64,000 nucleotides of DNA from Candidatus Omnitrophota bacterium (GTDB taxonomy: Bacteria > Omnitrophota > Gorgyraeia > Gygaellales > Profunditerraquicolaceae), in the NCBI GenBank assembly GCA_028716705.1, contig JAQUPI010000004.1:656-64655 (forward strand). Direction: 5' to 3'. The notes under the pieces are model-generated. The model saw only the letters and a list, made by a program, of their open reading frames with translations. It did no database searches and had not been told where the DNA came from. The first letter of the stretch is position 1. The number at the start of each line of letters is the position of its first letter. The position numbers and the translations under genes are program-made. Positions 46,633 through 64,000 of this stretch are shown here, piece after piece.

Positions 46633-48390
46633 TTAACCCGGAGAAGACTGATTGTGCGCGCAGCAAATAACTTTCGAATTGTCGTAAGTTCCGGCGGTGC
46701 AGCCATTGAAACCCCAGCGGGCGTTACCATAAGCGGCTGCGTGGCAGTTAGATGAATGGCAGCCGTTCGGGATCTGATTGCACCCGGGGTAAGATATAGT
46801 ATCGCAATTGCCGCAGTATACTCCCGGCAATGTATTACCCCCAAGCTGGTTCTTTACTTGCGCGCAGTTATGGCCGGCTATGCTCGGCACCTCCGCGTAA
46901 TAACCGCAGGTATGCCAACGGGTGTAATCGCTGCTGGCATCGCATGACTGGACAAGCCTGCAATCTTCTCCGCTTGCCGAAGTATGGGGCTTTACACACC
47001 AGCACAAGCATGTACCTAGATCGTAACTAGCTACGTAAGTGGCATCATAAGAAGTAGTGATGGTCATACCGACCACTGTCCCGCAGCTTGACGGCTTGCT
47101 CTTTCCGTCGCAATAGGCCTGGCACGCGGAGTAAGTGTATCTGCGCGAATATCCTGCCGGCTGGTCATCTTGCGCGAGCTGATTATCAAGATTGGTTTGA
47201 TACCATAAATTTGTCTGTTTCACTTGCGCGCCGCTGTTTACCGTGATAGAACCCGTGCCGACGGTGATGCTTTTGCCCGTATTCCAGGCGAAAGTGGAGC
47301 CGCTCGAAAGGTTCAGGTTGTAGCCGGAAAGATTAACATCACCGTTGTCTACGCCGTCTACGCCTGAGGGGCAGGACGTGGCGCTGCTCAAAGTCACATC
47401 TCCGCCGTAAGCGATGGTCGGTGAACAACGGACATTCATGGTTATTATGACCTGACCATTTCCGGTTTGCACTCCGGATGAGTTACTTTGGCTGCTTCCA
47501 TTATTATAGGAACCGCCGCCGCCGCCGTAACTGGAGTGGCTTGACCAGTAACCCGCGCTGCCTCCTCCGGAATATCCTCCGCCTGCTCCTGGGCCGCTCA
47601 ATTGCCCTCCTCCACCACCGCCGAAGCCGCCGAAATTTAAAGCGGTGTAACAGGAATTACCAGTTCCTCCGGTGCCTCCGTTTGTAAAACTTAATCCTCC
47701 GTATGCCAATACGCAATGCGTGCCGCCGTTAGCTCCATTGCCTGTCAAACCGCCTCCCGCGCCTCCCTGGTAAGCTCCACCCGTGCTTCCTCCTGCTCCT
47801 CCCGTTCCGCCGGCTGCGGTAGTATAACAGGTAGAACCTATTCCAGAAGTACCGGTTTGCCCGTCAGCATTGGAGGCGGTACGGGTACAGCTAGTGCCAT
47901 AAGTGGTTGACGGCCCTCCTCCGCCTCCTCCGGCGACAATTAAAGGAGTATTATTAGTATAAGTAACAAAAGTGCCGCCGCCGCCGCCGTTCTCATTGCC
48001 ATGGGCGCCGCCGTTACTGCCGCCGGCTTGCCCGACAAGGATCTTAAGTTGCGTTCCGGATGACAATGAAAAATCTCCGCGCATCCTGGCGCCTTTACCT
48101 CCGGCTAAAGAAGCGCCGCTTCCGCTTCCTCCCTGAGCGCCCCAGGCTTCAATTGTGTAAAGCCCGGTAGTAGGCACCGTCCAATATTGAATTCCGCTGG
48201 TCACGGTTACCGAAGGGCTGCCCCCATAAGCAGTGTTACATTGCGCCTGCGAAGGGCCGGAAACACCCGTCGCTCCACAAGGCGTAAAGGTATATTGCGC
48301 TGCCCAAGCGTGAGACGTTCCGGTTAAAAAGAAGAACAAACCGCTTAATACAGTCAAGAATGATCGAACGTAGATCCTTTTTTCTCTCAT
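46633..48390 (-). CDS. secreted glycine-rich-domain protein (ALK-like Gly-rich family) with Cys-rich C-terminal region
   Basis: Signal peptide, then YTFTPCGATGVSGPSQAQC...GIQYWTVPTTGLYTIEAWGAQGG and long poly-Gly tracts. The C-terminal third has more than 25 Cys. The start is set at MREKRIY; the ORF extends to 48456. Confidence 0.6.
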   Translation of the reverse strand: MREKRIYVRSFLTVLSGLFFFLTGTSHAWAAQYTFTPCGATGVSGPSQAQCNTAYGGSPSVTVTSGIQYWTVPTTGLYTIEAWGAQGGSGSGASLAGGKGARMRGDFSLSSGTQLKILVGQAGGSNGGAHGNENGGGGGTFVTYTNNTPLIVAGGGGGGPSTTYGTSCTRTASNADGQTGTSGIGSTCYTTAAGGTGGAGGSTGGAYQGGAGGGLTGNGANGGTHCVLAYGGLSFTNGGTGGTGNSCYTALNFGGFGGGGGGQLSGPGAGGGYSGGGSAGYWSSHSSYGGGGGSYNNGSSQSNSSGVQTGNGQVIITMNVRCSPTIAYGGDVTLSSATSCPSGVDGVDNGDVNLSGYNLNLSSGSTFAWNTGKSITVGTGSITVNSGAQVKQTNLWYQTNLDNQLAQDDQPAGYSRRYTYSACQAYCDGKSKPSSCGTVVGMTITTSYDATYVASYDLGTCLCWCVKPHTSASGEDCRLVQSCDASSDYTRWHTCGYYAEVPSIAGHNCAQVKNQLGGNTLPGVYCGNCDTISYPGCNQIPNGCHSSNCHAAAYGNARWGFNGCTAGTYDNSKVICCAHNQSSPG

Positions 48391-48407
48391 CTTTTTATTC
48401 GAAGCTG

Positions 48408-51400
48408 TTATCTTACTTTTAGCCCCCCTTGCGTGCCTCCGTAAGTATTCGGCCACGCGGCGTGATCAAATCTCGGCGCTGTAAACCTGAAAGAAACCTC
48501 TCCTTCTTTGTCACTGTGGATAATAAGCTTTTTGTTGGCGATATCTTTTTCATACCAGATATTACCGTTAAAGCTGGGCGTCAATATTATAACCAGATTC
48601 TCCCAGTCATTACCGAACTCGGTTATATTACCGAACAGCCACAGGTCGCTGCCTTTGGCGGACCCGTCAAAATCGATCACCGCTTTTATAGATCCGGCCG
48701 CATTTTCCAGCCTGATTATTCCGGTGGCCTCTTCCTTTATCCCGATCATGCCCGCCATATATGTGGCGAACTTCTCGCCCGCGATGTCATATATCGGGTC
48801 GACCGTGCCGACGTCCAGTTTCCCGGTTCCGCCGCCGATACTGGCGTTACCAGCCGTTATTAGCGGGCCGTCAAAGTAGGCGGTCGCGTCAACTTCCAAG
48901 TTACCCTGTACGAACAGGTCAGGAGAACCGCTGGCATGGCCGGGACTTATCGCGCCTATCCTTACGTCATCAACCACATCTAGTTTGTATCCTGGATTCG
49001 TTGTGCTGATGCCGACGTTGCCGTTTGTATCGATGACCAAACGAGGGGTTGCAATTCCCACATTTTGGATTCCAAAGTATCCAGCTGAAAAATCTGTTCC
49101 GACACTCCTGACAAGCTGGTAGTCGTTCGAGCCGAAGTTCCCGATACGAATCGCGACGTTCCCAGAAGTCTGCGCTACATGCAATTCCTCCTGAGGGTTC
49201 GTCGTGCCGATGCCGACGTTGCCGGAAGCGACGGTCATCACGCCCGTCCCGCCCGTCGCAAAGCCGATCTTGTCTTCGGCAATCCTGTACATGCCCGTGT
49301 TACCATCGCTGGTATATGAATATGTCGGGGAGGAAGCAGAACTATCCGAAGCCCGGATATAACCATCTACCAGCAAAGTAGAAGCGAATCTGCCGTTACC
49401 ATTAACTTCCAGTTTATAAACCGGATCAGACTTCCCTATGCCGACGTTACCGCTATTCATAGCCAGATTCACGCCTTGATAGAATTCTGAATAATAACGG
49501 CCGATAATGCTCCCTCCTGAATCCAGACCTCCGGTTTTAATACCGCCGTTCACGTGCAGCTTGGCTTCCGGACTGGCTGTACCTATACCGACGTTGCTCG
49601 AAGGTAAAAGGTTTATGTGACCGGCGCCGGAGGTTATTTCCAACCCCTGGCTGAAACCGCTTGAAGAACCGATCCTTCCTTTTTCGGAGTTAACCAGATG
49701 CGAGGTATTCGCCGCAGAGATAAACACATTGTCTCCGGCGTTATTTTCCGCCCAGACACTCGCCGTATTATTATCGCCTATGCTTGTAACTTTTGCCCTG
49801 ATATATGCTGTCTGCGTATCTTGCACATCAAGTTTGTAAGAGGCAAGGGTTGTCCCAATACCGACGCTGCCAGTGTTCATAGATATATCGCCTGTGCCCG
49901 TCCAGGAGTCGTTCGTTGAATCGTATGCTCCGGATGTTTCCGTACCCAGGGTCACGCAGGTAGTGCACTGCACATTTTCCACAACCGCACTTCCGGTCGT
50001 ATAATTCACATCTCCGTGATCAACGTTTGCCAAGGCGGCAAGAGAGACCTCGTCGGTGTCCGGGACGTCATCATCGATGCCATCCGCATCAAAGTAGCCG
50101 GTGTCGCAGTTTCCGTCGCCGTCTAAGTAGGTGGATGAGCCGTTGCAAATGGTTGAGGCGTTGGTGTCGGTATCTACGGGCCAGGTAGTACGGGTCGTGC
50201 CGCCCAAACGGATACCTGTACCGCCCACATCCAGGCTGGCCAGCGGAGCTGTCGTACCGACGCCAAGGTTGCCAGAACTTATTATAAGATTGCTAGCAGG
50301 AGTAATGGTAATGTTCCCAGAATTATTAGAAATGGTTGAGGTTGTTCCGCCGATATCGAGTTTTGCTGTAGGGTTGGTTGTCCCGATTCCGACGGTACCA
50401 TCATTTCTTAAGAAAAGCACCGATGAAAGTGTGCCGCCGGTATTTGAGGTAAAGAAGTTAAAGTTACCTGTTTTATTATTCGCGCCCGTGACTTCCATCT
50501 TTGCTATGGTATTAAGCGCGGAGGCTCCTCTATCATAGAAACCAAACGTAGACTTTCCTGCTCCCTGGCTGTCCAAGGTTGACTCTAAAACTGAATTATA
50601 CCCTCCGCCGGCATTCCCGTGGTATAAAGTCAATACTCTTGCTGTGTAACCACCCTGATTAATAATATTATTCCCTATGCCGACGTTACCTGAAGTAGTA
50701 TAAATATCGCCTGTGCCTGTCCAGGCGTCATCCGTTGAATCATAGGCTCCGGTGGTTTCGGTTCCCAGGGTTACGCAGCTTGTGCATTGTACGTTCTCTA
50801 CCACAGCGCTTCCGGTCGTGTAATTCACATCTCCGTGGTCAACGTTCGCCAGCGCGGCGAGAGATACCTCATCGGTATCGGGAACGTCGTCATCAACGCC
50901 TCCTATATTATGGAAATCATTTGTGGCTGCGGACTGGATATTGGCCAAGGTTGTGGGCCAGTTGGAGTTGTAGCTCTGGCCGTCGACAGTATCAGCGTTT
51001 AGGTTGGTAACTACGGTGGTGGATGATACAGCCAGAGGGGCGGTCCCTGTGCCGAGAGTCGAGATGAGCTGATTATTGGTGCGGATGGCACCTCCAACCA
51101 CATCAAACGTAACTCCGGGGGACGTAGTTCCGATCCCAACGTTACCGCCTTTCGGATTCAGCGCCAGCGGGAAAACAGCGTCATCGGATGGCCTGAAAGC
51201 TTGCATCCAAACCGCGTATGATCCACTTGACTTTGACCCGCCGAATAAATAAACATCACTTCCGCCCAATCTATAGGCAGCTTCAGTAGATGATATAGTA
51301 TCGCTTCTGGCTTTTTCTACATACAGCGTATTTCCTGGAGTTCCACCGACTCCCAGGTATCCGCTGACAATCGTCCTTCCCGAACCGTTCGGATCTATGG

Positions 51401-54400
51401 AAAGATCCTCGTTAGTATCATAAGTTGTAATCGCGGCCGCTCCGCCATAACCGAAGAGCGCTCTTTTAAAATACAAATCTCCGCCGTTGTAAATCAATAA
51501 ATCCCAGTTGCCGGTATTAAGTGCGTCGACGCCCCAACCCGAAGTATTAACATTGCCGAATTTATCGGTTGCCGATCCGGTGCTATAGTACATCCCGCTG
51601 GTTCTCGTATCGCCGCTCACATCCAGCTTATATCCCGGATTCGTTATGCCGATGCCGACGTTACCTGAGCCCGATATAGAATACAGGTTGCCATTGTTGA
51701 TGGAAATATTATCCGGGACTTCTCCGTCGGAATCAGGCGCATCATCGTCGCTGCCGTCCGCGTCAAGGTAGCCGGTATCGCAGTTACCGTCTCCGTCCAG
51801 GTAAGTAGTGCTGCCGTTACAGATCGTTGAGGCGTTGGTATCAGTGTCTGTCGGCCAGGTTGTGCGAGTCACCCCTCCTAAACGGATACCCGTGCCTCCT
51901 ACTTCCAGGCTGGCCAGCGGAGCTGTCGTACCGATACCGACGTTGCCGATCTCGGTTATGCGCATTCTTTCCTGATGTGAATTTCCCGATAAATGTGTTT
52001 CAAAACCAATATATTCGCTGTCGCCGTTAACGCCAAGTAGCAGCGCTCCACCTCCTGATACTCCCAGCTGATAAATATTATTTAAAGGCGTACCCCAGGA
52101 GAGCCTGCTTGTTGTTTGAGGCATTGAAAGTTGCGTTGCAGGAGCCGTTGTCCCGATGCCGACATTGCCAGCCCCGATGGAAAAATAAGCATTGCCAGTA
52201 CCAAGTTCAAGATCATGCCGGGTTGTTCCGCCGCCCCTGAATTCATAACTATTCTGATAGGTACCGGAATCCGCCGTATTCCAGTAAATCCCCCAGTTAC
52301 CCTGGCTTAACACGTAATTGCTTGGGCTGTCCGGATAAAGGACTGAATTGACATTGCAGCTCGCGTCTCCGCTGCACGCGTTGGCATTTGCCGCGGTTCC
52401 ACCCGTAGTAAGATAATTTGAGGCGGTAATAGTATCAGGTATATCGTTATCAACCAGCGCCCTGAATGCCGGGGCGGCCGCGGCGCCTGAAGACGGGCCG
52501 GCGTAAACAAGGTTGGCGTTTTGATTTGCTTTGGAAAAAGTCAATGTGCCGCTTGTAGTAACAGGCGAACCGCTGACTGTGAATTCCGCGGGGGCAGATA
52601 AGCCTACGCTGGTTACTGTCCCAAGGCCGGTTTCTCCGTTAAATGCGACAGAATTTAACGCCCTTGTGCTCAAGTTCCCGCTTCCGTCGGTCATTACCGC
52701 TGTAGTTTGGCTGCCTGAACTTAAACCGACAATAGACAGCTTCGATAAAGGATTGGTAGTGCCGATGCCGACGTTGCCTGTGATGGCGGCCAAATAGGTA
52801 TGGCCTCTTGTCTGGAAAGACGGATGCGTACCGACGGTCTGTCCATCATCGAATCTGGCGGACTCATACCAGGTAGAGGTATTTTGCGACTCAACGATTA
52901 GAGGGATCCCGCCTCCGGTATCGCTTTTATACATCCTGGTCCCCCACTGCTGGCTAAGATCATACGTAGGAGTGAAAAATGCCAAACCGGTGACGTTGGA
53001 ACTTGAGGCGATCTGTAACCTGTGTTTGGGCGCGGTCGTCGCTATACCCACGTTGCTGCCCTCTAAAACTATCGCGTTACCGTCATATAAACTCAAATAA
53101 CCCGCATCCATTTCCCGGATATACGTATTTCCTCCTGTCCAGGTTATCCCTTCGTTGGTATCAGCAAAGGCAATGGAATCAGGGCCGGTGATCGCCCGGT
53201 TGTTCATCTGTAAACCTGTGCCGCAGCAGGTTTCCGCGATCAATAAAGTCGCGCCTCCAACCCTTAAGTTTCCGTTTACGTCTAACTTATAGCCTGCTGT
53301 GGGGCTGTTTGTGCCGACGCCGACGTTACCGCCATTTAGCGCAAAATGAGCGCTGCCGTCATCTAACGCGATCCTTGATGTCACCGCGCTGGCATTGTTA
53401 AATTCTATATAATCGGGAGAGCCTTCATTGTAATTTATCCCCCAAGTAGTTGAAGCAAGGTAATCACCGGAAGGCGAGAAGACCTTGCCGTCCGGAGCGC
53501 CTGTTGCCGCCGGGACTATTCCTGTGGGAAATATTCCGTAACCTGTTGATTTGATATTACCGCTGACATCCAGTTTTTGTGCCGGATTGGTAGTGCCGAT
53601 GCCGATATTGCCATTTGCGTCGGAAAGCCGCATGACATTAGAATCATTTACCTGAATATCTATGCCGGCGGTCGCCGGTTGAATATCCAGAAAGTCCCCG
53701 CCGCCTGCGTCATTTTTGACGCGGAAAGCGGCATTTTCCACACCATGAACAAGTAAGCCCGTGTACCCTGTGTTAACTATATCCAGATTAGCAATGGGGC
53801 TGGATGTACCGACGCCGACGTTGCCGTCGCTCTTGACCCAAACCCCTTCATTTCCGCCGTCATTGGATAACCAGTACCCGCTCATCCTGAGATTTTGAGT
53901 GGCGATATGGTTGCCTAAATTATCCGCTCCTGTCGGCCAGCTGGAAAGTGTCGTGCCTCCCAGGCGTATGCTCCCTGAACCCATATCCAGCGACGCGATA
54001 GGATTAGTCGTGCCGATACCGACATTGCCGTTGATTGCTAATTTAGCGACCCCGGCATTACCGTATCCTATACCGACGTTACCTGAAGGATTTACAACAA
54101 TTAGTTGCGAAGACCCGGTAAGAGCATCATTTACACTGTTAAACTCTAATAATCCATCGATGACGTCAATCGCAAAATTCTTCTTATCCACAGCAGCATT
54201 GCTGTCAGTTAATTGAAGCCTAGCTCGCGTTCCGGCTTCAACCACCATAATTCCATAATTATCCTTTTTAACGTGCGTTCCCAGCCAATCTGAATAGCTG
54301 CCTCCGCCTCCGATGCTTTGTAACGGAGTTGTTGTCCCGATGCCGACGTTGCCGGAGGTCGTATAAACATTTCCCGTTCCTGTCCACGCGTCGTCCGAAG

Positions 54401-55040: not shown

Positions 55041-55129
55041 TTCATTCCTCCTTATTTTGATGATGCCCAAAAAAGTTTTATTTATATTTTTGATAATATC
55101 AGAAAATAAAGACGTGATAAGATTTTGCA

Positions 55130-57409
55130 TTAGTTCCCCAAACGCACTGACGCGCCTTCGTTATAATCTTCTTTTATCTGGTCTGCTGTGCGGGCATAGT
55201 TATAGGCACGCGCGTCGTCGATATTACCATTAAAATACCAACTACCCCCCGTATGACGCCCAATATTAAATGCGGAGCCGGTATCTACAGAGTTTGTGTT
55301 TCCCGAGGCATACCCGGAACTCTGGACTTGTTTTCCATCCAGATAAACAGCGATATTATTGTCTCTATCAAAAACGCAGGCGCCGTGATGCCAACTTCCC
55401 GTAGTTGGAATAGAGCCGGCTACATGCTGATTAGTGCCGCCTGCTGCTTGGATCGAACAAGTAAAATAATTACTGCTATTTATCTCCATGCCATATCCCG
55501 TAGATCCTGCAGACCCCTTATTAATAATACTTTTCCATTCCGCCGGAAGAGAAGATAAATAAAACCAGGCAGAAAGGGAAAAATCTCCTACACCAAAATC
55601 GAGCGCGCCGGTTCCGGGATCACCGACATTCACATAATCACTGGTCCCGTTAAAGCTCAAGGCTCCGCCGTATTTTCCTGTAGTCCAAGCGATATTTGAG
55701 CCTGCCCCTGAACCGTTATTGCCCTGGCCGGAGCTGTCCTTAATATTGCCAGACCCCACCGCCGAGCCGCTGGTCGCCTCGTCCATATTCCAGTGCCCTA
55801 CCGGCTTGCCTTTATTATAATCCCACGCAATTTGGGCCGGTGTGCGGACGTAATCGTAAATACGGACGTCATCAATTAAGCCTTTAAAGGCATTGTTCGC
55901 CAAGCTAAAGCTTATGGATGTTATCGGATCTATATCGTGCAGGCTGGACTGTTGTGTTACGTTATACGGCACTCCATTGACATAAAGCTTTGCGGTGTTT
56001 GTATTAGCCGGGTCAGTATAAGTCAAAGCCAGGTGATACCAGGTATTGATTGAAGGGAGCCAATTTATTAGATCGGCCGTTCCCTCAAAATAAAAATAAT
56101 TATTAGCATAATGTTGGTAAAAATTACTGAATAAATAATTTCTATCCCCTTTAACGCTTGCCTGTTCTGTGATATAAACCCAGGCTTCCTGTGTTCTTGC
56201 GGTACTGATAGAGGAAACACTGACGTAATCTCCGTCTCCATCAAAACTTAAGGCGTTTCCGTGTTTGCCGTGTGCCCAGGCGGCGTTAGAGACCGTCCCG
56301 TTATTGCTGTTTCCCGAGCGGTCATAGGCAATTGTTCCGCTGTTTTCATCAAAGCTCCACCAGGCGATCGGAGGATTGCCTCCCCAGGGATCATACGTTC
56401 CCGAAGATGAACTGCCCAAATGGACAGATGATCCGGAATCATATTCCATATTAATTTCATCAACAGTGAGCGCCCTGTTGTAAATCTTTAATTCGTCGAT
56501 CAGGCCCTTAAAATAATCTGTCGGATTACCGTTGGCACCGCCGTTGTTATTCCTGCCGATCTGGGTCCACCCATCTCCGCCCAGGTTTCCGCTCTGGGCC
56601 ATGGAGTTATCGAATACTCCGTTGACGTATAGGCGAGTATAAGATCCGTCGTAAACAACTGCGACATGCGTCCATTGGTTCAGCGGGATGTTGATATTCC
56701 CGGTTACGTTTTGCCAGCCGGGAGCAAGAATTGCCGCATAAAGCCTATTTCCGGTTAAACGAATGTGTAATGGCCCGTTCTTGGTAATGATCGTGCCGGT
56801 TCCGCTTTCAGGATAGACCCAGGCGGTGATAGTTAATTTGTTTCCGGAAATCTCGGAAAGAGCCGGAGCGGCGGAACCTAAATTAACGTAATCATCATAT
56901 CCGTCGAATTTCATGGCCGAGCCGTATTTTCCGGAAGCCGACAAAGTCGCCATGCCGGTATTTTTATAAATATGGTAATTATGGCCAGCGGCAAACCCGG
57001 TTAGAGCGGCAGAAAGATAAATACTTTTATCGTTCTGCCCGCTTGCAACCACAAAGTCGGTAACAGTAGCGGTCTGGCCCTGGGCAGGGCCGCTGGTTGC
57101 TTCAAAGGTCCATCCATTATAATAATCATTGGAATAACTTAATTGCCAGTCAGGGGCGGTTTCTTTGACTATGGTTGTAGTGGTACCCGTATCCGCAGTT
57201 CCATAATCTCCCCAGCTGCGGCTGCCGTGATTGTTACCGCTTTTATCATAAACCGTGGTTCCGCTTGTCTCTTCAAAATCCCAATAAGCTACAGGCGCGG
57301 CTCCTTTCGCGCCTGAGCCGAGAATAAACTCAGCAAAAACGGATCCGGTAGATAAAAAACAGAGCATAAAAACTACGGTTATAGATGTCGCTAATTTTGT
57401 TTTGTTCAT
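55130..57409 (-). CDS. secreted protein with three LamG-like (concanavalin-A-like lectin, Laminin_G_3-type) domains
   Basis: Signal peptide plus three occurrences of the YWxFDE-SGT-YDxSGNxNNG signature (VAYWDFEETSGTTVYDKSGNNHG, IAWWSFDENSGTIAYDRSGNSNNG, VGHWNMDEATSGSAVGSG...GQGNNG). Confidence 0.7.
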   Translation of the reverse strand: MNKTKLATSITVVFMLCFLSTGSVFAEFILGSGAKGAAPVAYWDFEETSGTTVYDKSGNNHGSRSWGDYGTADTGTTTTIVKETAPDWQLSYSNDYYNGWTFEATSGPAQGQTATVTDFVVASGQNDKSIYLSAALTGFAAGHNYHIYKNTGMATLSASGKYGSAMKFDGYDDYVNLGSAAPALSEISGNKLTITAWVYPESGTGTIITKNGPLHIRLTGNRLYAAILAPGWQNVTGNINIPLNQWTHVAVVYDGSYTRLYVNGVFDNSMAQSGNLGGDGWTQIGRNNNGGANGNPTDYFKGLIDELKIYNRALTVDEINMEYDSGSSVHLGSSSSGTYDPWGGNPPIAWWSFDENSGTIAYDRSGNSNNGTVSNAAWAHGKHGNALSFDGDGDYVSVSSISTARTQEAWVYITEQASVKGDRNYLFSNFYQHYANNYFYFEGTADLINWLPSINTWYHLALTYTDPANTNTAKLYVNGVPYNVTQQSSLHDIDPITSISFSLANNAFKGLIDDVRIYDYVRTPAQIAWDYNKGKPVGHWNMDEATSGSAVGSGNIKDSSGQGNNGSGAGSNIAWTTGKYGGALSFNGTSDYVNVGDPGTGALDFGVGDFSLSAWFYLSSLPAEWKSIINKGSAGSTGYGMEINSSNYFTCSIQAAGGTNQHVAGSIPTTGSWHHGACVFDRDNNIAVYLDGKQVQSSGYASGNTNSVDTGSAFNIGRHTGGSWYFNGNIDDARAYNYARTADQIKEDYNEGASVRLGN

Positions 57410-57440
57410 ATCAGCAGGTGCCCTACTTCCGCTTGCAACT

Positions 57441-60400
57441 TTATTGCATCATTACGATCACTTCCACCACGCCCACGTCTTTTTCAAGCTTTGTAAGCGC
57501 TTTTCCGATGACTGTGCCTTGAGGCGGATTTTTTCCTGCCTTCATGGCATGGCCCGGAGTGGAAGAAGACACCAAGAGGTCTCCGGGCTTGATCGCACCA
57601 TTTTCCGAAGTTACTTTACAAGGGACTATGCCGCTTAAAACTACAGGGGCGGCGTTTTCCAGGTCGTCGCGTAATATTTGCGCCGGGTTAGTGGAAATTA
57701 TCCCCACGACGCTGGTAGCAAAAGCCGAATTTGAACGCTTTATGCCTCCCTGCTCATCGATCACTACTACATCTCCGGGTTCCGGTATAGCAAATAACAT
57801 TTGCGCGTTGGCCACGATAGCCGGATTCAATACGCAGGAAGCAAGGGGCACCATTTCCGCTAAGTCCCCGAGCGAACCCTGCCTGATGCGCCCGGTCAAT
57901 TTAATGTGCCCCTCAATATCCAATTTTTCCGAGGGATTGGTCCTGCCTATTCCTATATTACCGTTTTGCACCAATAAATGGCCGCCGTTTATCTCTAATT
58001 TCGCTCCAGGAGTCGACGTGCCGATGCCTACATTACCTGACATGACATAAACAGGGCTTGATCCCACCCAGGCGTCATCGGTAGTGTCTTTCGCGGCAGT
58101 ATAGCCGGTGGCGATGGAATTTGCCTGCCAGGTGCCGGTGCCGATCGTTCCTAAGGTTGTGATACTGGTTGATCCGGCCCAGGTGGAAAGAGCGGTATTT
58201 TCAACATTGCTTAAGCCAACGTCCGATTTGGTCACGGCTGACCAGCTCGGGGTTGCCGCTCCGGTGGATTTCAAGAAACCGCTTGCGCCGCCGAGACGCG
58301 TAGGCGCGCCGGCAGTACCGCCGTAAATAATATCTCCCGCGGTTGTCATGGGGTTGCTCATATAAGAACTGGTATCAACGGAAAGGGTCCCGTCGCCGCC
58401 AGAGGTCTTGACAAAACCATTGGAGGTCAAATTCGAGAGTTTAGGAGTATTAAGAGATGTGGCAATTCTCGCGGTCCCATTAACATCAAGTTTATAGATG
58501 GGGCTTGTCGTGCCTATGCCGACGTTGCCGGAATCTCTCCCGATCGCTATTCCCAACAATTCAGCGCTGTCGCTTATCGTTACAATTTTGAACAGGCTCG
58601 GCGTATCATCAAAATACACCCTTGCGCCCCAATTACTAGCCGTGGGATCCTCGAAACGGATACCGACCTGATTACCCGCCCCCACCTTGCTGATCTCTAT
58701 TTTGTCTCTGGGTGCGGTAGTTCCGATACCGACGTTGCCGTTATTATTAATCCTCACTTTAGCCGGACCGGTATCGGCAACCTCAAAATCTATTGCATTT
58801 ACACCTCCGCCGCTGCGAATTACGAAATGATTACTGTCTCCGGTTAATTCTCCGGTATTAGCAATGATGTTTCCATTGACATGTAATTTTCCCGAGGTGC
58901 TTGATGTGCCGATGCCCACGTTGCCGGTACCGGATAGAGAATAGAGGTTACCGTTATTTATGGAAATATTATCCGGGACCTCTGCGTCTGAGTCCGGCTG
59001 GTCGTCATCGGTTGAAGTAAAGGCCATCGTGCCTAAGGCGCGGGTGCTCAAATTCCCGCTGCCATCGGTCATTATGGCGGTAGTCTGGCTGCCAGAGCCT
59101 AGGCCTACGATCGAAAGCCTTGAAAGCGGATTGGTAGCGCCGATGCCGACGTTGCCGTTCGATGAAATAGCAATACCCGCTGTATCAGTAGTCCCTCTTT
59201 GCATCAACCACGTATCGCCCGAAGTTATCCAGGAACGGCCCGTAGCTCCTGCCCCTCTATATAGCGTTAATCCGCCTACGTTAGTAGCATCTGTCTTAAT
59301 TTCTAGTTTTCCGTATTGTGGATTTGTCGTGCCGATGCCGACGTTGCCGTTAGCATCAATTCTCATTCTTTCGATCGCGGAATTTACATAAAACGATAAT
59401 CTGTTGCCGCCGCTGCTATCTCCCTCAATTCTAGCGTTTGTGGCAGTACCGATCCCCCAACCATTGATAGCGGTAAATGGCGCATACTGAGCACGGTTAG
59501 TTAAATCCAAAGTAGCAAGAGGCTGAATGGAACCAATTGTATTTACCGCTTCCAATGACTGATCGTTGTTCATCCTTATATTACCATCCGCTACATGTAA
59601 CTTCGCCCCCGGACCAGTTATCCCGATGCCGACATTGCCTGAAGTGGTGTAGACATTGCCCGTGCCTGTCCAGCTATCATCAGTGGTGTCTTTGGCGGCG
59701 GTGTAGCCGGTGGCGATGGAATTTGCCTGCCAGGTGCCCGTCCCAATAGTCCCTAAAGTGGTGATGCTGGCCGATCCTGTCCAGGTTGAAAGAGCGGTGT
59801 TCTCAACATTGCTTAAGCCGACATCGGATTTGGTTACCGCCGACCAGGTCGGAGCCGCTGCTCCGGTGGATTTCAGGAAACCGCTTGCGCCGCCGAGACG
59901 CGTAGCTGCTCCGCCGGATCCTCCGTAAATTATATCTCCAAGATTGGTCATCGGATTAGCAAAACCGGAAACAGGCCAACTGGTCTGGGTAACCCCTCCT
60001 AAGCGTATGCCGCCTGAACCCACATCCAAAGCTGCCAGAGGGTTAGTGGTGCCGATGCCGACGTTACCGGCTGATGTAATGGCCATTCGAATAAGATTGT
60101 TTCCGGTCATAGGAACGGAGCTGCTGGAAGCGCCGGTATAAAAGATTACGCCTCCTGTACTGGAGTGGGCGCCCATTGCAAGATCGTTACTTGCGCCGCC
60201 ATTCAGAATATTTGAATGTTGCATAAAAGGAAGGTTAGTTTCAGAAGTTGTGGCGGTCTTTCCCAGCAGGATCCGGGCTGATGAGTTTGCTATTGAATCG
60301 CCGATCTGCAGCAATGCGCCCGTGATATTTCCCGGGTTGGTTGTCCCGATGCCGACGTTGCCGGTGCCGGATAGAGAATAAAGGTTGCCGTTATTAATGG

Positions 60401-63400
60401 AAATATTATCCGGAACTTCAGCATCTGAATCCGGCTGGTCGTCATCGGTTGAAGTAAATGCCATCGTGCCTAATGCGCGGGTGCTTAAATTTCCGCTGCC
60501 ATCGGTCATTATGGCGGTAGTCTCTGAAGCGCCGGAAAGCCCGGCAAGACGGACACTTCCAGTAGTATGTAACTGCGCCGCGGGGCTCGCCGTACCGATA
60601 CCTGCGTTGCCGTTGCCCAGAATAGTCATAGCTTCTACGCGGCCTGCCCAGTTATTTTGCAACGATGTAAGGAATCTTATCGCCTGCGAAGTACCCGTAG
60701 GATCGGCAGCCAGGTACAGCTCTTCGCTGCCCGCAGAAACATTGGTATCAATTGCGCCGGCGCTTTCGCCGCCGCCCATGATCACCGGACCTCCGCCATC
60801 TATCAACAAGCGCAGGCCGTTTACGTCAGAACTGGTTGCGCGCAGGACCGTCCTGGTTACAGGACCGGTCGAGTTCTTGATCACGATGCCGCCATTATCC
60901 AAATACAGGTTGCCTACTACATGAAGTTTTTCCGAAGGAGTCGTAGTGCCGATCCCGACACTGCCCGAAACCGATAATCCGTTTGCAGAGGCGGCGCTTC
61001 CGGTTGAATAACCGATAGAAGCGTTTCCGTTGACTTGGAATTTCGTCCCCGGCAGAGTTGTGAGATTGACGCCTACATTGCCGTTGGAGAAAATATCCAG
61101 GTTTTCGTTCGCGGCGTATCCCAGGAACATCCTGTTCTCTCCGGACCCGCTCCAACCGATACTTCCAAGCGCAGCAGTCCCTCCTTGACCAAGCGAGATA
61201 TACGGCCCATTGGCCGCGAAGATATTCAATTTTGCCTGGGGATTTGTGGTCCCTAAACCGACATTTCCCGAAAGCATATTGATCCTTACTCTTTCGCTTA
61301 CTCCGTCCATAAATCTCCACGACCTGTTCCCGGTACCGGACCCTACAAATTCAATATCTTCCGCGGTTGTATGCCCTATCCACCATGCGTTGTCCGTATT
61401 CTTTAAATAAAGCACGCCGCCGTTGTTGGCATTGCCGTTGCCTGTCACGCCTCCATCTACTCCTACGCCGCCTCCGGCAAGATGCAATTTCCTTCCGGTA
61501 GCCGGACTGGTCGTGCCGATGCCGACACTGCCTTCCCGGGTAAACGCGGCAATTTCTGAACTGTCATCGTTATCCCTGATTAAAAGCGCGCCTAATCCCG
61601 AGGCGCCCACAGTCCCGTCGTAGTGAAGGCGGATACCTGCCGTAGCATTTTCAAGGAATCTTATGTTGCCGCTGTTTGACTGGTTTTCTGTAGCTGCCCG
61701 GATATTGATGCCTTTGCCGTTCCCGTATACTTCCAATAGATCACCCGGAGCCGTTGTCCCTATACCAACATTGCCTCCGAATATGCCTGCGCCCGATATC
61801 CTGATGTTCCCGGTCTGCTGCGTCCCGGGGGTAGAACCCTGGAGCTGCACATAGTTTGCGCTTCCGGAGATAGGGGCAAATCTTGTATCCAAATCTGTCG
61901 TACCTATGCCGGTAAGATGGCCCATGGTATCCAAGGTAATATCCTGGACGACCGTGCCGTTGGAGTTATCGGAGTTTGCCTGGCTTGAGGTGTCGGTATG
62001 GGCTACGGCATCCGCAGTGACGGTGATGCCTGTGCCGGCGCCTACGGATATGGTGTTTCCGGTTGAGGTAAGGCCGTCTCCCCAGGTATAGGCAGCAGCT
62101 CCGGTAAACTGGGTAAAGGCCAGGCCGGTGGAGTTCAATATGATGGGGGCGTTAGTGCTCATCACCCATGCGGTGTCCGCGTTGGCTGTACCTTCCTCGA
62201 TGAAGACAGCGGCCTGCAGGACCTCGGCGGAATTATCAGCATCCGTTGCCCTTGTGGGCGCTCCGGTGGCATTGACGGTATAAATACCGTTCTCGGCCTG
62301 GCTGGCCTGGTTCTTGACGAGGATGCGGTCGCCTGTGGCTAAGGTTACTCCGTCTATGGCGTCGCCGTTCTCAAAGCTTGAGGCTAAGGTTCCGGAGCCG
62401 GTGGTTGAGGCCCTGACGGATTGTTTCCATTTAAGGCCGGCTATAGAGTTATCTATGTAGCTCTTGGCAGCGGCCTGGGACGGGATACGGGTGTTGGAGT
62501 TTGCGGCCAAAGTTGTATCCGTGTCCACGACGTTGGCGGCAAAGTCAGCGGTCTCAAGGTTTGAGATGGAGTTACCCGTGCCGTTGGCGTCAATGGTCTT
62601 GTTGGTGAAGGTATTGGTGGAACCGGCGGTCACATAGTCGGTGCCGGCGACAGCGTTAGAAAATCCTCCCGCTCCGTTACCTTTTAATATAGCGCTGCCG
62701 CTGGTGGCGGGTGCGTAGTCAGTGCCGGAAACCGCGCTGGAGAACCCTCCTGCCGCGTTACCTTTGAGTATTGCGCTTCCGCTTGTGGCAGGGGCGTAGT
62801 CAGTACCCGAGACGGCGCCGGAAAGCGCTCCGGAGGCGGCTTTAAGTATACCGTTAAGCGTTGTTCCTATGCTGGTAAGGCTGGATAGGCTTGAGACTGA
62901 CGGGACAACGTAGTCAGTGCCGGAGACGGCGGTAGAGAATCCTCCCGCTCCGTTACCTTTTAATATAGCGCTGCCGCTTGTGGCGGGTGCGTAGTCAGTG
63001 CCGGAGACGGCGCTGGAGAATCCTCCTGCCCCGTTACCTTTTAATATAGCGCTGCCGCTTGTGGCGGGTGCAAAATCAGTGCCCGCGGAAGCTATCGTCA
63101 AAACCCCTGTGCCATTCGTATTCTTAAGCAATCCGGTTGCTAATCCGGACAAAGCTTGTTCAGCCGTCAGCGTCGGGTCAGTTGTCTGAGTAATATAGGT
63201 AGCGTCAATGACCCCGGAAGGCCAGCTGGTGCGGGTAGTCCCGCCTAAACGTATGCCGCCTGAACCCATATCCAGGGCAGCCAAAGGATTGGTAGTACCG
63301 ATGCCGACGTTGCCGGCACTTTCTATGGTCATTCTCGGGCTGGATAAAGCTATATTGTCTCCGGTCCAGAAACTGATCTTATCGTAAGAACTCATCCTCA

Positions 63401-64000
63401 GGTCCCATCTCGTAGCTGAATCATAGCCGAACCTGAAACCCTGTCTTGAAGGGGAGATAGCGTCTCCAACCGTAAAATTATAAAATGTGTTTGTGGCGTG
63501 GTTAATACCGTCGATCGTTATGACGTCTTCGTTATTTGTATTTGGTTTGATATGTAATTTGCTTAATGGATTTGTCCTGCCGATGCCGATATTACCCACA
63601 TTCGCCATAACGTTAGCATTGCCATCCAGAGAACCTGTCAACTTGCCCTTTGATATTTCAAAAGCGGGGCTCGCAGTAGCGCTGCCCTGCAATCTGGCTA
63701 CTTCAACCTGGTTTCCGCCGCTGTCTCCGGCTTTAAGAACCAGGGCATTGGCTTCTCCCGGATTGGATGTCCGCGCCCTGGCGGTGATCACGCCCGTCCC
63801 AGCGTACCAAAAATCGAGCGTCCCCGCATATAACAGGCTGGATCCGGTATTCAACCCCGCAAAAGCGCTATCCGCGGCATTCCTTAACTGCATTTCAGAG
63901 GAAGCGCCTTCTTTAAACATCATGTTGGCGGTCCGGAATTTTATGCCCCTGACATCGCCGTTCACATCCAGGGCAAATCCCGGAAGTGTCGTTCCGATGC
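57441..64000 (-). CDS. second giant beta-strand repeat protein, paralog of 48408..55040 (C-terminal more than 2170 aa; N-terminus beyond window end)
   Basis: The same GNVGIGTTNP...LDV repeat occurs about 17 times and it shares long modules with the first giant gene. There is a distinct non-repeat C-terminal domain of about 150 aa. The ORF is open to the window edge. Confidence 0.8.
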   Translation of the reverse strand, partial: IGTTLPGFALDVNGDVRGIKFRTANMMFKEGASSEMQLRNAADSAFAGLNTGSSLLYAGTLDFWYAGTGVITARARTSNPGEANALVLKAGDSGGNQVEVARLQGSATASPAFEISKGKLTGSLDGNANVMANVGNIGIGRTNPLSKLHIKPNTNNEDVITIDGINHATNTFYNFTVGDAISPSRQGFRFGYDSATRWDLRMSSYDKISFWTGDNIALSSPRMTIESAGNVGIGTTNPLAALDMGSGGIRLGGTTRTSWPSGVIDATYITQTTDPTLTAEQALSGLATGLLKNTNGTGVLTIASAGTDFAPATSGSAILKGNGAGGFSSAVSGTDYAPATSGSAILKGNGAGGFSTAVSGTDYVVPSVSSLSSLTSIGTTLNGILKAASGALSGAVSGTDYAPATSGSAILKGNAAGGFSSAVSGTDYAPATSGSAILKGNGAGGFSNAVAGTDYVTAGSTNTFTNKTIDANGTGNSISNLETADFAANVVDTDTTLAANSNTRIPSQAAAKSYIDNSIAGLKWKQSVRASTTGSGTLASSFENGDAIDGVTLATGDRILVKNQASQAENGIYTVNATGAPTRATDADNSAEVLQAAVFIEEGTANADTAWVMSTNAPIILNSTGLAFTQFTGAAAYTWGDGLTSTGNTISVGAGTGITVTADAVAHTDTSSQANSDNSNGTVVQDITLDTMGHLTGIGTTDLDTRFAPISGSANYVQLQGSTPGTQQTGNIRISGAGIFGGNVGIGTTAPGDLLEVYGNGKGINIRAATENQSNSGNIRFLENATAGIRLHYDGTVGASGLGALLIRDNDDSSEIAAFTREGSVGIGTTSPATGRKLHLAGGGVGVDGGVTGNGNANNGGVLYLKNTDNAWWIGHTTAEDIEFVGSGTGNRSWRFMDGVSERVRINMLSGNVGLGTTNPQAKLNIFAANGPYISLGQGGTAALGSIGWSGSGENRMFLGYAANENLDIFSNGNVGVNLTTLPGTKFQVNGNASIGYSTGSAASANGLSVSGSVGIGTTTPSEKLHVVGNLYLDNGGIVIKNSTGPVTRTVLRATSSDVNGLRLLIDGGGPVIMGGGESAGAIDTNVSAGSEELYLAADPTGTSQAIRFLTSLQNNWAGRVEAMTILGNGNAGIGTASPAAQLHTTGSVRLAGLSGASETTAIMTDGSGNLSTRALGTMAFTSTDDDQPDSDAEVPDNISINNGNLYSLSGTGNVGIGTTNPGNITGALLQIGDSIANSSARILLGKTATTSETNLPFMQHSNILNGGASNDLAMGAHSSTGGVIFYTGASSSSVPMTGNNLIRMAITSAGNVGIGTTNPLAALDVGSGGIRLGGVTQTSWPVSGFANPMTNLGDIIYGGSGGAATRLGGASGFLKSTGAAAPTWSAVTKSDVGLSNVENTALSTWTGSASITTLGTIGTGTWQANSIATGYTAAKDTTDDSWTGTGNVYTTSGNVGIGITGPGAKLHVADGNIRMNNDQSLEAVNTIGSIQPLATLDLTNRAQYAPFTAINGWGIGTATNARIEGDSSGGNRLSFYVNSAIERMRIDANGNVGIGTTNPQYGKLEIKTDATNVGGLTLYRGAGATGRSWITSGDTWLMQRGTTDTAGIAISSNGNVGIGATNPLSRLSIVGLGSGSQTTAIMTDGSGNLSTRALGTMAFTSTDDDQPDSDAEVPDNISINNGNLYSLSGTGNVGIGTSSTSGKLHVNGNIIANTGELTGDSNHFVIRSGGGVNAIDFEVADTGPAKVRINNNGNVGIGTTAPRDKIEISKVGAGNQVGIRFEDPTASNWGARVYFDDTPSLFKIVTISDSAELLGIAIGRDSGNVGIGTTSPIYKLDVNGTARIATSLNTPKLSNLTSNGFVKTSGGDGTLSVDTSSYMSNPMTTAGDIIYGGTAGAPTRLGGASGFLKSTGAATPSWSAVTKSDVGLSNVENTALSTWAGSTSITTLGTIGTGTWQANSIATGYTAAKDTTDDAWVGSSPVYVMSGNVGIGTSTPGAKLEINGGHLLVQNGNIGIGRTNPSEKLDIEGHIKLTGRIRQGSLGDLAEMVPLASCVLNPAIVANAQMLFAIPEPGDVVVIDEQGGIKRSNSAFATSVVGIISTNPAQILRDDLENAAPVVLSGIVPCKVTSENGAIKPGDLLVSSSTPGHAMKAGKNPPQGTVIGKALTKLEKDVGVVEVIVMMQ

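Follow-up and report, generated by a model that had tools for sequence, protein, structure and literature searches.

Two very long genes for probable MAT-like trimeric surface fibres, interleaved with a LamG gene, in an Omnitrophota genome

The end of the window (the whole 64-kb stretch of DNA that was analysed) raises a question: what do its two giant repeat genes encode, and do they form an apparatus with their neighbours? The ORF scan of the window shows four closely packed ORFs in a row between 46.6 and 64 kb (g1 to g4). All are on the minus strand, and the earlier note was right to call them consecutive and co-oriented. This orientation is uninformative, because all the sizeable genes of the window sit on that strand. 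The proposed Omnitrophota source was also confirmed, as a Candidatus Omnitrophica MAG encodes a protein identical to g4. The four genes are:

46633..48390, minus strand (ORF 46633-48456): g1, secreted protein of 585 aa, likeliest start 48390
48408..55040, minus strand (ORF 48408-55130): g2, complete fibre gene of 2210 aa, defined by ORF, start site and motifs
55130..57409, minus strand (ORF of the same extent): g3, secreted, 759 aa, with a LamG / concanavalin-A-like lectin domain in three copies (PF13385)
57441..64000, minus strand (ORF 57441-63965 and beyond): g4, the 3' 6.6 kb of a fibre gene, 2185 codons and a stop, with the 5' end cut

The setting of g1-g4 is chromosomal and not that of a phage. 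The 57 kb downstream hold housekeeping and envelope genes of a diderm (BamA, LpxA/C/D/I, DnaB, Pst, tRNAs). No capsid, portal, terminase, baseplate or integrase gene was found in these 57 kb.

The giants share the motif GNVGIGTTxPxxKLxV, with 19 copies in g2 (19-20 across tallies) and 18 in g4. It was counted as the pattern G[NSTD][VILA]G[IVL][GASN]. In the control, 2000 residue shuffles gave a mean of 0.4 and a maximum of 4. Outside g2 and g4, the motif is absent from the rest of the window. The expected 17-20 copies per gene were therefore recovered, but not their periodicity: neighbouring copies lie 7 to 513 residues apart. Likewise, modules are indeed shared within and across the genes, although at 75-89% nucleotide identity and not at about 90%. 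Three repeat pairs illustrate this:

58021-58337 and 59623-59939, minus strand: pair within g4, 80.8% identity
58888-59086 and 60328-60523, minus strand: pair within g4, 89.4% identity
52666-52778 and 59044-59156, minus strand: pair across genes, 80.5% identity

The shafts of g2 and g4 are mosaics of several distinct module types. Because these types differ and their spacing is irregular, the long, regular beta-solenoid deduced from a periodic motif is unsupported.

We searched a module profile of 48 positions (A1) against the PDB. It found 8OND (Bd2133, 1.3e-22), 8OML (7.5e-12), 8OL4 (3e-9), 8OJN (1e-7) and 8ON4 (1.4e-4). Nothing but these five crystal structures of Bdellovibrio MAT (mosaic adhesive trimer) fibres fell below E 0.01, and CdiB (E 0.06) was the only other entry below E 1. 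Whole-protein phmmer agrees, with g2 matching 8OND, 8OML and 8OJN, and g4 matching Bd2133 and Bd3182. The alignment with the MAT chains spans ERMRI...GNVGIGTTAP...L.V. At the sequence level, this comparison shows that the shaft is homologous to MAT modules. PHROG tail-fibre families are matched by both giants, the best values being 6.6e-37 (g2 with phrog_9942, tail fiber) and 1.3e-15.

We propose that g2 and g4 are MAT-like trimeric surface fibres with the terminal domains described below, and we give this reading a probability of about 0.7. They would be very long homotrimers of the MAT / phage-tail-fibre-like superfamily. Short beta-rich modules would make up the shaft as a mosaic, and a GNVGIGTTxPxxKLxV capping loop would close each of them. 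Trimerisation and surface display are expected by analogy with homologues. The capping-loop consensus and trimeric crystal structures from Bdellovibrio were published by Caulton et al. 2024 (PMC10769870), who also tabulated an Omnitrophica MAT. About 209,000 representative proteins contain the module, the longest reaching 7,900 aa. Homologues from Omnitrophota, Patescibacteria and Flavobacteriales frequently terminate in Peptidase_S74 (S74 below) and carry the name 'tail fiber domain-containing protein'. Since the fibres join a very large and already described family, the locus is no new kind of system. The idea of secreted, fibre-forming repeat proteins with a plausible part in adhesion or host contact holds. 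Nevertheless, the arrays are neither essentially uncharacterised nor the undescribed system that had been supposed.

The MATs of Bdellovibrio bacteriovorus (Bd2133, Bd1334, Bd2439, Bd3182) share with g2 and g4 the capping-loop module along a beta-rich shaft and a mosaic build with swappable C-terminal tips. They have a Sec signal peptide, as does g2. Their genes, like those here, are chromosomal, in a bacterium with a presumed dependence on other cells. However, g2 and g4 exceed the MATs in length by a factor of two to more than four: they have 2210 and >4258 aa, against about 600-1150 aa for the HD100 proteins and 1915 aa for the longest in the table of PMC10769870. Bdellovibrio MATs have a conserved 130-aa N-terminal domain. 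After its signal peptide, g2 looks like ordinary shaft modules, of a type also found inside g4. Unlike MATs, g2 and g4 lack S74; the phi29-gp12-type chaperone tip of g4 is unmentioned in PMC10769870. Finally, the fibre genes here are interleaved with a LamG gene.

The likeliest start of g2 is 55040, with an AAGGAGG ribosome-binding site at 55047-55053, 7 nt upstream. This start gives exactly the 2210 aa noted before. Two parts of the protein stand out:

54933-55040, minus strand: Sec-type signal peptide, residues 1-36, read from the sequence (AFA|LD)
48411..48836, minus strand: C-terminal tip domain of about 140 aa, a conserved beta-sandwich by predicted fold

Export of g2 would proceed via Sec, as its signal peptide indicates. 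No recognisable anchor domain was found in g2, and no component for passage across the outer membrane or for anchoring came to light. The tip carries the signature GGGTGKLxVGT[IV]DP[IV]Y...KYATY...GSDLWLF...WYEK...APRFD. Structure prediction was applied to the two terminal domains (g2 tip and g4 C-terminus) as monomers. The probable function of the tip is to bind a ligand on a different cell.

The frame of g4 is open to base 64000, where the edge reads IGTTLPGFALDV. Its sequence agrees at 100% with MDD5552629.1 (2707 aa) and forms part of MDD4984474.1 (4258 aa), a longer version from another assembly that still lacks an N-terminal signal. Signal peptides had been reported for all four genes. 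They are present in g1, g2 and g3, whereas the window does not reach the N-terminus of g4. Three segments of g4 stand out:

62635..63085, minus strand: tandem 27-aa repeats with an 81-nt period (TRF, 77-92% matches)
61971..62510, minus strand: phage virion-type globular domain, kin to DUF2793 / 'head decoration' (PHROG)
57444..57866, minus strand: C-terminal 141 aa, a phi29 gp12-like (MEROPS G2 type) chaperone domain (profile)

The repeat unit is GTDYAPATSGSAILKGNGAGGFSxAVS. A direct-repeat family (D2) covers the same stretch, and dozens of homologues have this type of repeat. The globular domain matches phrog_2647 (2e-28) and phrog_27782 (1.5e-29). By tblastn, 140 phage records contain proteins with 42-51% identity to it; their annotations read head decoration, capsid decoration or tail protein. 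In P0121, a diverged upstream copy of it matches PF10983 at 2e-14.

The C-terminal domain of g4 matches phi29 gp12 (PDB 3GQH, 3SUC, 6QZ9; MEROPS family G2) in a sequence-profile comparison (E 3.4e-5). The D-F-A-E boundary of gp12 corresponds to D-L-A-E in g4, aligned exactly at the gp12 cleavage point after residue 691. Cleavage of g4 is predicted at G2044|D2045 of the window translation (...RQGSLG|DLAEMV, codons 57864-57869). Fold and motif alignment together show that the domain is homologous to the self-cleaving chaperone of gp12. In both proteins, it is the last domain of the chain, and the fibre or spike that it ends is beta-rich and trimeric (predicted so for g4). By analogy, it would serve as a C-terminal nucleus for the folding of the trimer and then cut itself away at G|DLAE, so that a stable fibre remains. 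Release of the gp12 chaperone reportedly involves ATP (work ascribed to Xiang et al. 2009). ATP would be unavailable outside the cell, and this counts against a gp12-type release for g4. Other differences exist. The upstream part of gp12 is a right-handed beta-helix enzyme domain, whereas that of g4 is a MAT-type shaft. In addition, g4 is cell-encoded, its neighbour g2 is predicted to be secreted, and the Pfam family model is not significant on g4: neither Peptidase_G2 nor Peptidase_S74 matched g2 or g4. The g4-type chaperone domain occurs in archaea too.

The same logic, a C-terminal chaperone removed after trimerisation, is found in phage fibres and spikes with an S74 intramolecular chaperone (K1F endosialidase, the T5 L-shaped tail fibre pb1) and in 'tail fiber domain-containing proteins' from Patescibacteria and Bacteroidota. 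This group also shares shaft modules and capping loops with g2 and g4. Among the matches listed, about one sixth of the g4 homologues have a PF13884 end. In contrast to this S74 group, g4 has the unrelated gp12-type domain and g2 the beta-sandwich tip.

The phage-like parts could mean that g2 and g4 encode the tail fibres or tail spikes of a prophage, a tailocin or another phage-derived particle, and no cell-surface proteins. The PHROG matches, the virion-type module and the gp12-type chaperone favour this. In addition, a complete close relative of g4 (P0003) has no signal peptide, and the window ends inside g4, so that the gene context covers the downstream side. However, virion proteins do not carry Sec-type signal peptides as g1, g2 and g3 do, and the 57 kb of housekeeping and envelope genes contain no phage structural or integrase gene. 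Related loci (L002-L004) show no phage structural genes in the Pfam tables, and Bdellovibrio cells use the same architecture. A phage particle is highly improbable. The earlier note had named homologues of known function, such as a phage tail fibre, in a different context as a reason to drop its reading; the tail-fibre match exists, but the phage context does not. Monomeric beta-solenoid adhesins or S-layer-like coat subunits are very unlikely as well. The repetitive composition, rich in Gly, Ser, Thr and Asn, would suit them, and long beta-helix regions are reported for Omnitrophota giant proteins. Against them stand the uneven motif spacing with several module types, the intertwined trimers that are the sole solved relatives, and the known role of the g4 domain in chaperoning trimer assembly. 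S-layer and autotransporter domains were not found in the g1-g4 domain search.

That the repeats are collapsed or chimeric products of assembly is hardly credible. It is true that the part of g4 outside the window has a 1059-nt internal repeat of 99.3% identity, and that the 5' extent differs between two assemblies (2707 vs 4258 aa). Nevertheless, the modules inside the window are too diverged at their 75-89% identity to collapse. An independent contig matches the window at 99.976% over 12.5 kb, a third contig has an identical stretch of g1, and the frames are intact across 6.6 kb apiece. The three independent assemblies are concordant at 99.98%.

The Omnitrophota giant genes (archaeovorin-/dockerin-type; Kizina 2022, Seymour 2023, West-Roberts 2023) were considered as a class for the MAT-like fibre genes. 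They come from the same phylum, have a proposed adhesion to host or prey, and contain LamG and other carbohydrate-binding modules. However, their ORFs exceed 20-25 kb, against 6.6 kb and >12.8 kb here. In the proteins of this locus, neither multiple transmembrane helices nor dockerins nor enzymatic domains were found. In the parts of the giant-gene literature consulted, tail-fibre-like or trimeric fibres are unmentioned. This class, suggested before, is ruled out for g2 and g4 because the ORFs are too short and the protein family is different.

At the 0.4-0.7 A per residue of Bdellovibrio fibres, mature g2 would be ~85-155 nm long and g4 >160 nm. By this analogy, the span would be similar in scale to an Omnitrophota cell. 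Most likely, the fibres would make contact with host or prey cells and adhere to them, or attach to surfaces. Taken on its own, a role in host or prey contact has about even odds. A host-dependent lifestyle has been inferred for Omnitrophota (PMC10066038), whose genomes show many signs of it. The characterised MATs serve prey recognition, and the nearest relatives cluster in Omnitrophota and Patescibacteria, mostly episymbionts. These points weigh against trimeric surface fibres with another purpose (particle or biofilm attachment, cell-cell aggregation, phage shielding), which we consider unlikely but worth weighing. In a family with ~209,000 representatives, predation or host contact cannot be assumed for each one. 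The family is taxonomically broad, with free-living lineages, and Caulton et al. (PMC10769870) tabulated MATs of non-predators. LamG domains bind many polysaccharides, a CBM function is cited for laminin_G_3, and the window holds no predation-specific feature.

The triple-LamG protein between the giants was verified. Laminin_G_3 (PF13385) covers three stretches of g3 (E 3e-71), behind the N-terminal signal-like sequence MNKTKLATSITVVFMLCFLSTGSVFA. It would most likely supply carbohydrate binding, free or attached to the fibres. A LamG gene adjoins a related fibre gene in 7 of ~42 loci. Such adjacency is seen in Gorgyraea atricola, among others. This recurrence suggests an association, yet LamG genes are common in such genomes.

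The protein g1 had been described as ALK-like, Gly-rich and Cys-rich. Its composition agrees (20.7% Gly, 26 Cys), but its own match to PF12810 (ALK_LTK_GRD) reaches 17-22 bits, under the Pfam gathering score of 24.5. More than 2800 homologues exist, many with PF12810, and g1 matches phrog_22713 at 7e-40. It has two regions:

about 47437-48222, minus strand: ALK/LTK-type glycine-rich domain, following the signal peptide
about 46636-47427, minus strand: Cys-rich C-terminal half, with 20 of the 26 Cys

We found no g1-type gene near related fibres in 42 other loci. So, of the dedicated apparatus once envisaged, the LamG partner recurs and the Gly-rich partner does not; g1-g4 are not a conserved four-gene unit. 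Presumably g1 is secreted separately as a disulfide-rich protein, and adjacency is what ties it to the fibres.

Three envelope genes identified by Pfam lie beyond g1:

45726-46547, minus strand: DsbA-like thiol oxidoreductase
44536-45729, minus strand: Wzy_C / O-antigen-ligase-like membrane protein
42956-44539, minus strand: TPR protein

These genes (42956..46547) may form a functional group with the fibres. The DsbA-like/Wzy_C and Wzy_C/TPR gene junctions each show a 4-nt overlap.

ORF calling on the 64-kb window places four consecutive ORFs on the minus strand of the region. They are separated by gaps of 17, 89, and 31 nt.

Genes of the fibre locus, with positions in the window.
46633-48390, minus strand: g1, a Gly- and Cys-rich secreted protein, 585 aa from the most plausible start
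48408-55040, minus strand: g2, a long repeat fibre of 2210 aa, with AAGGAGG 7 nt upstream of its ATG
55130-57409, minus strand: g3, a triple-LamG protein of 759 aa
57441 to past base 64000, minus strand: g4, a long repeat fibre whose frame is open at the window edge

At the window edge, the translation of g4 is IGTTLPGFALDV. Promoter and terminator scans gave background levels (24 found for 22 expected, and 18 for 20, respectively), so the argument for an operon comes from the short intergenic gaps (17-90 nt). Rfam and tRNA scans have no match within the fibre region. The earlier note had attached importance to the shared orientation of the four genes and had read signal peptides on all of them. 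The orientation is uninformative because the minus strand carries every sizeable gene of the 64 kb. Signal peptides are readable on g1, g2, and g3, but not on g4, whose 5' end is missing. All the ORFs with a Pfam match and all four tRNAs are also on the minus strand (window 1-64000), and the GC skew is negative in every 2-kb bin except the last one. The whole window seems to lie on one replichore with an extreme gene-strand bias.

The pattern G[NSTD][VILA]G[IVL][GASN] is present in 19 copies in g2 and 18 copies in g4. This agrees with the 17-20 copies of GNVGIGTT per giant protein that had been estimated. In 2000 shuffles the same pattern appears 0.4 times on average (maximum 4), and it is absent elsewhere in the window in any frame. 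The motif had also been described as periodic. Its spacing is irregular, from 7 to 513 residues.

Pfam and NCBIfam show no match on the whole g2 and g4 proteins, and domain-only scans remain sub-threshold. The phmmer search against all PDB sequences finds only chains of Bdellovibrio bacteriovorus (Bd2133; "cell wall surface anchor family protein"), with the aligned core ...ERMRI..GNVGIGTTAP..L.V. We then have the profile A1, for which we took 40 segments of g2 and g4 centred on the motif. It matches the PDB entries 8OND (1.3e-22), 8OML (7.5e-12), 8OL4 (3e-9), 8OJN (1e-7), and 8ON4 (1.4e-4), and no other below E 0.01. These five entries are the mosaic adhesive trimer (MAT) fibres Bd2133, Bd1334, Bd2439, and Bd3182 (PMC10769870 mapping). 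The MAT chains in the PDB are C-terminal fragments.

The MAT fibres consist of an intertwined homotrimeric β-helix, with module edges closed by "capping loops" (Caulton et al. 2024, PMC10769870). The capping-loop consensus is V-G-G/N-pi-x-x-P-x-x-x-L. Strain HD100 has 21 MAT paralogues; in 13 the C-terminus is a Peptidase_S74 chaperone, and the remaining 8 have other tips, which are new β-sandwiches, TNF-like domains, and a C-type lectin. The fibres are displayed on the surface of the predator, and one member binds glycans (PMC10769870). The A1 matches and this consensus identify the GNVGIGTT motif as the MAT capping loop. Both g2 and g4 thus have repeated β-helix modules closed by this loop, and at the level of sequence their shaft modules are homologous to trimeric MAT fibres. 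The g4 homologues have 1200-3800 aa and come from Omnitrophota (for example Gorgyraea atricola, with 3139 aa), Patescibacteria, and Flavobacteriales. Among them, many terminate in PF13884 (the S74 chaperone) and are named "tail fiber domain-containing protein". Their lengths, ends, and names fit the capping-loop identity.

The family is large. The A1 module is present in 209,246 of 1.84 billion representative proteins at E <= 1e-3 (19,755 at E <= 1e-30), and the best matches are proteins of 4000-7900 aa with 40-86 module copies. An Omnitrophica MAT (A0A2H0LB00, 713 aa, S74-like) is already in Supplementary Table S3 of Caulton et al. (PMC10769870), where the longest MAT has 1915 aa. With 209,246 proteins and a MAT description from 2024, this is no longer the most likely undescribed system of the window, as had been proposed.

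The shafts of g2 and g4 are mosaics of recognisably different module types.

Module types of the shafts.
...ERMRIxxxGNVGIGT
DDDxPDxDxEVPDNISINNGNLYSxSGTGNVGIGT
AAKDTTDDxWTGTGNVYTTSGNVGIGT
GNVGIGTTNPLSKLSIVGLSSGSQTTAxMTDGSGNLSTRAL
GNVGIGTTNPLAALDxGSGGIRLGGTTRTSWP

In addition, g4 has tandem 27-aa repeats (81-nt period) and a globular module. In 140 phage records this module has counterparts with 42-51% identity, under the annotations head decoration, capsid decoration, or tail protein, and a diverged copy of it, located upstream, matches DUF2793. The mixed modules, the 27-aa repeats, and the phage-type module fit the term "mosaic" and argue against a uniform solenoid. Together with the irregular motif spacing, they speak against the long regular β-solenoid predicted before.

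The C-terminus of g4 resembles the chaperone of gp12, the tail spike of phage phi29. The AlphaFold2 monomer model of this domain (mean pLDDT 80.8, core above 90) has the fold of gp12 residues 692-854. Independently of the model, the profile A2, from nine sequences sharing the last ~150 residues of g4, matches gp12 (6QZ9, residues 675-768) at E 3.4e-5. The g4 segment DLAEMVPL aligns with DFAEYFES, with which 3GQH, the cleaved fragment, begins. At the same site 3SUC, a crystal form without cleavage, has DFAQ, with Q at the Glu position. The DLAE of g4 conserves both the Asp and the Glu of the D-x-x-E boundary motif (gp12 D692 and E695). Xiang et al. 2009 are said to have described the gp12 C-terminal domain as an auto-chaperone that drives the trimer assembly of the tail spike. 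Reportedly, this domain removes itself by cleavage before D692, and E695 is needed. The domain has no significant match to Peptidase_G2, the Pfam model for the phi29 gp12-type chaperone family (MEROPS G2); in the domain-only hmmscan, with E up to 1, XM1_gp53_minor_capsid is the single match (19.5 bits). In mature gp12*, residue 691 is the last one (PMC6542822).

Using a four-sequence alignment of the g4 domain (A4), we found 39 homologous loci in GTDB genomes. They include Patescibacteria, KSB1, Myxococcales, Verrucomicrobiota, Nitrospira, Gammaproteobacteria, Saprospiraceae, Woesearchaeota, and Thermoplasmatota. Most of them keep the boundary motif G[AS]-D-x-A-E, and in many the gp12-like domain is the extreme C-terminus. 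It caps a GNVGIGTT-motif fibre in at least four (L005, L010, L015, and L038); the fibre ORFs have 2000-2300 aa in the last three, and that of L005 is cut by the contig end. From the gp12 match and the conserved boundary motif, we predict that g4 cleaves itself between RQGSLG and DLAEMV (codons 57864-57869). In five loci from Woesearchaeota, Euryarchaeota, and Thermoplasmatota MAGs (L008, L025, L039-L041), the gp12-like domain ends large archaeal proteins, and these copies keep a D-x-(A/S)-E boundary.

The g2 protein has a signal peptide with its junction between AFA and LD. Over the next 190 aa it resembles shaft modules found inside g4 and other proteins. The last ~140 residues are a domain that Patescibacteria proteins share; across 15 sequences it is strongly conserved, with 28 invariant columns. 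In the AlphaFold2 monomer model, the core (pLDDT 80-96) is a β-sandwich. Its BFVD matches are weak and are, again, tail fibres and tailspikes. The same domain is present in short proteins of ~250-270 aa (P0250, P0254, P0256, and P0259 of the tip alignment A3), after an N-terminal TM helix and a Pro-rich linker. Because it occurs in these proteins without a fibre, it is an autonomous extracellular module, and we infer a functional tip rather than a chaperone. PF13884, with its S-D-x-x-x-K motif, has no match in g2 or g4, although many homologues have it. So, the variable tips are a β-sandwich in g2 and a gp12-type domain in g4, the latter a type absent from the tips in the MAT paper of Caulton et al. 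By their modules and tips, both proteins probably belong with the MAT fibres; they are not S74 fibres. The solved relatives and the trimer-chaperone-type domain of g4 suggest that both are homotrimeric.

Two other origins for the long genes were considered. The first is a tail-fibre module of a prophage or tailocin. PHROGs places g2 and g4 in tail-fibre families (phrog_9942, 6.6e-37; phrog_18345, ~1e-15), and the earlier note had recognized that close phage tail-fibre homologues would count against its reading. Such matches exist, but the context is chromosomal. There are no phage structural, lysis, or integration genes in the window, and the annotated neighbours at 0.6-46.5 kb have housekeeping or envelope functions. 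Judged from the 57 kb that are available, the locus is not in a prophage. The rest of the window is the ordinary chromosome of a diderm bacterium, with HisG, transketolase, GlmU, Prs, L25, Pth, DnaB, BamA, LpxD, LpxC-FabZ, LpxA, LpxI, RtcB, SerRS, PhoR/PhoB-like proteins, Pst, PhoU, Fur, and four tRNAs. The second origin, also mentioned in the earlier note, is the giant genes of Omnitrophota, with ORFs longer than 20-25 kb. The sizes of g2 (6.6 kb) and g4 (12.8 kb or more, by the longest assembly) stay below this, and Pfam and NCBIfam show none of the many-TM, enzymatic, or dockerin domains of those genes in g2 or g4. With regard to function, the locus is similar to the MAT fibres of Bdellovibrio and to the receptor-binding fibres of phages.

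The g4 fragment matches MDD5552629.1 (2707 aa) with 100% identity; this protein is encoded on a contig of 66,324 bp in a "Candidatus Omnitrophica bacterium" MAG. The fibre-LamG-fibre locus is also present, with 99.976% identity to the window over 12.5 kb, on the 18.7-kb contig JAQTTS010000012.1 (GCA_028710655.1; L001). This contig was deposited in a Dehalococcoidales MAG, and the 66-kb contig with housekeeping genes in the Omnitrophica MAG; the short one was probably binned wrongly. An identical piece of g1 is on a contig of a third MAG. On L001, g4 has 4258 aa. It lacks a signal peptide and starts ~20 nt from the contig end, which means that the full gene is still longer. A contig search with the N-terminal 936 aa of this version found no relative. 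L001 also reveals a 1059-nt internal repeat in g4 with 99.3% identity (833-1891 and 4472-5530), spanning the 27-aa repeats and the phage-decoration-like domain. The second copy corresponds to window 61880-62938, and the first is upstream of base 64000. The start of the 2707-aa protein is immediately 3' of the first copy, as expected if the assembly broke there. The segment order in the 4258-aa version is tentative. The repeats inside the window are too diverged to be collapse artefacts. Their nucleotide identity had been put at about 90%; we measured 75-89%, so the modules are similar, but not uniformly to that degree.

The triple-LamG nature of g3 is confirmed. It has three Laminin_G_3 domains (PF13385, 3e-71, 238.9 bits, three stretches, above the gathering score). 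Its match as the fimbrial protein TafC, with 87 bits for a cut-off of 410, was rejected. In Gorgyraea atricola (L002), three LamG genes of ~1300 aa are just downstream of the related giant fibre, and a locus from JGI 3300009538 (L004) also has one LamG protein. Another locus (L003) has the same fibre-LamG-fibre order. However, its g3 is 99.9% identical, so it represents the same population and not independent support. LamG genes are near 5 of the 39 loci found with the gp12-like domain. These cases are suggestive of a recurrent LamG-fibre neighbourhood. In L002, an AbiEii toxin gene and a 203-aa ORF (9754-11176) separate the giant fibre gene from the three LamG genes.

The g1 protein is 20.7% Gly and has 26 Cys, mostly in its C-terminal half. 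It scores 17.4 bits as a whole protein and 21.9 bits as a domain alone against PF12810 (ALK_LTK_GRD; gathering cut-off 24.5), and many of its more than 2800 homologues carry this domain. As a conserved fibre partner it was discarded: none of the 42 related loci has a GRD match nearby, so the link of g1 with the fibres is one of adjacency.

In the mechanism that we propose, g2 and g4 would trimerise. The assembly of g4 would nucleate at its C-terminus, and self-cleavage would follow. The fibres would be displayed on the cell surface; the g2 tip and the LamG domains would bind ligands, and the fibres would contact host or prey cells. Bd2133 measures ~145 Å for 370 residues, and Bd3182 ~550 Å at full length (PMC10769870). 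Scaling from these dimensions (0.4-0.7 Å per residue), mature g2 would reach a length of roughly 85-155 nm, and g4 would exceed 160 nm. This is comparable to an ultra-small Omnitrophota cell (Seymour et al. 2023). P0003, a complete relative of g4 in L004, has no signal peptide. We consider it possible, with a probability of about 0.3, that the two fibres, with about the length of the nanobacterium (roughly 0.1 to 0.3 micrometres), and the interleaved triple-LamG lectin make up an apparatus for host capture in an Omnitrophota episymbiont or predator. One of these fibres would mature outside the cytoplasm through a self-cleaving phi29-gp12-type chaperone. This chaperone, which is widespread in bacteria and archaea, would be a second, previously unremarked assembly route of cellular MAT-like fibres.

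To our knowledge, little has been learned about the ways in which ultra-small, host-dependent bacteria, Omnitrophota and Patescibacteria among them, locate their hosts and stay attached, and attention in Omnitrophota has so far been on ORFs longer than 20 kb. We know of no fibre class other than the MAT type with experimentally shown prey recognition (Bdellovibrio). An Omnitrophota genome also carries MAT-type, phage-like fibres. Our results add three points to the literature that we consulted. They indicate that cells of many bacterial and some archaeal lineages also encode MAT-like fibres capped by the gp12-type chaperone, as an alternative to S74. The g2 tip is a conserved domain common to Omnitrophota and Patescibacteria. 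Finally, the recurrent LamG neighbour is suggestive. The advance is incremental and introduces no new principle. It offers clonable targets (the g2 β-sandwich tip, the g3 triple-LamG lectin, and the g4 predicted self-cleaving chaperone with a defined motif). It is also useful for annotating the ~200,000 module-bearing representative proteins, most of them now labelled hypothetical.

Beside P0003 in L004, a 50-aa ORF (7602-7754) with bAvd and 23S_rRNA_IVP matches is between the fibre gene and the LamG gene. Because a bAvd-like ORF adjoins a related fibre, we considered a diversity-generating retroelement, of which bAvd is the accessory protein; the ORF hints that some fibres of this family could be targets of such elements. 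No reverse transcriptase was found in the window. Downstream of the locus, a DsbA-like oxidoreductase is followed by a Wzy_C membrane protein and a TPR protein (overlaps of 4 nt), and then by two secreted proteins. It is an attractive idea that the DsbA-like protein serves the 26-Cys g1, and another idea is that the Wzy_C protein glycosylates a surface protein; both roles are putative. The two secreted proteins (41008-42513 and 42534-42929, minus strand; 501 and 131 aa, without Pfam match) occupy the stretch from the TPR gene to hisG, with little space to the adjacent genes, and may extend the surface-protein cluster. Further along the window, the tRNA-Gln at 35524-35597 is overlapped by the automatic TTG start of a GlmU-like ORF (34245-35552), whose true start is probably further downstream. 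At 23758-25074 (minus strand), a 438-aa ORF fuses LpxC with a FabA/FabZ-like dehydratase domain, within an lpxD-lpxC/fabZ-lpxA-lpxI cluster.
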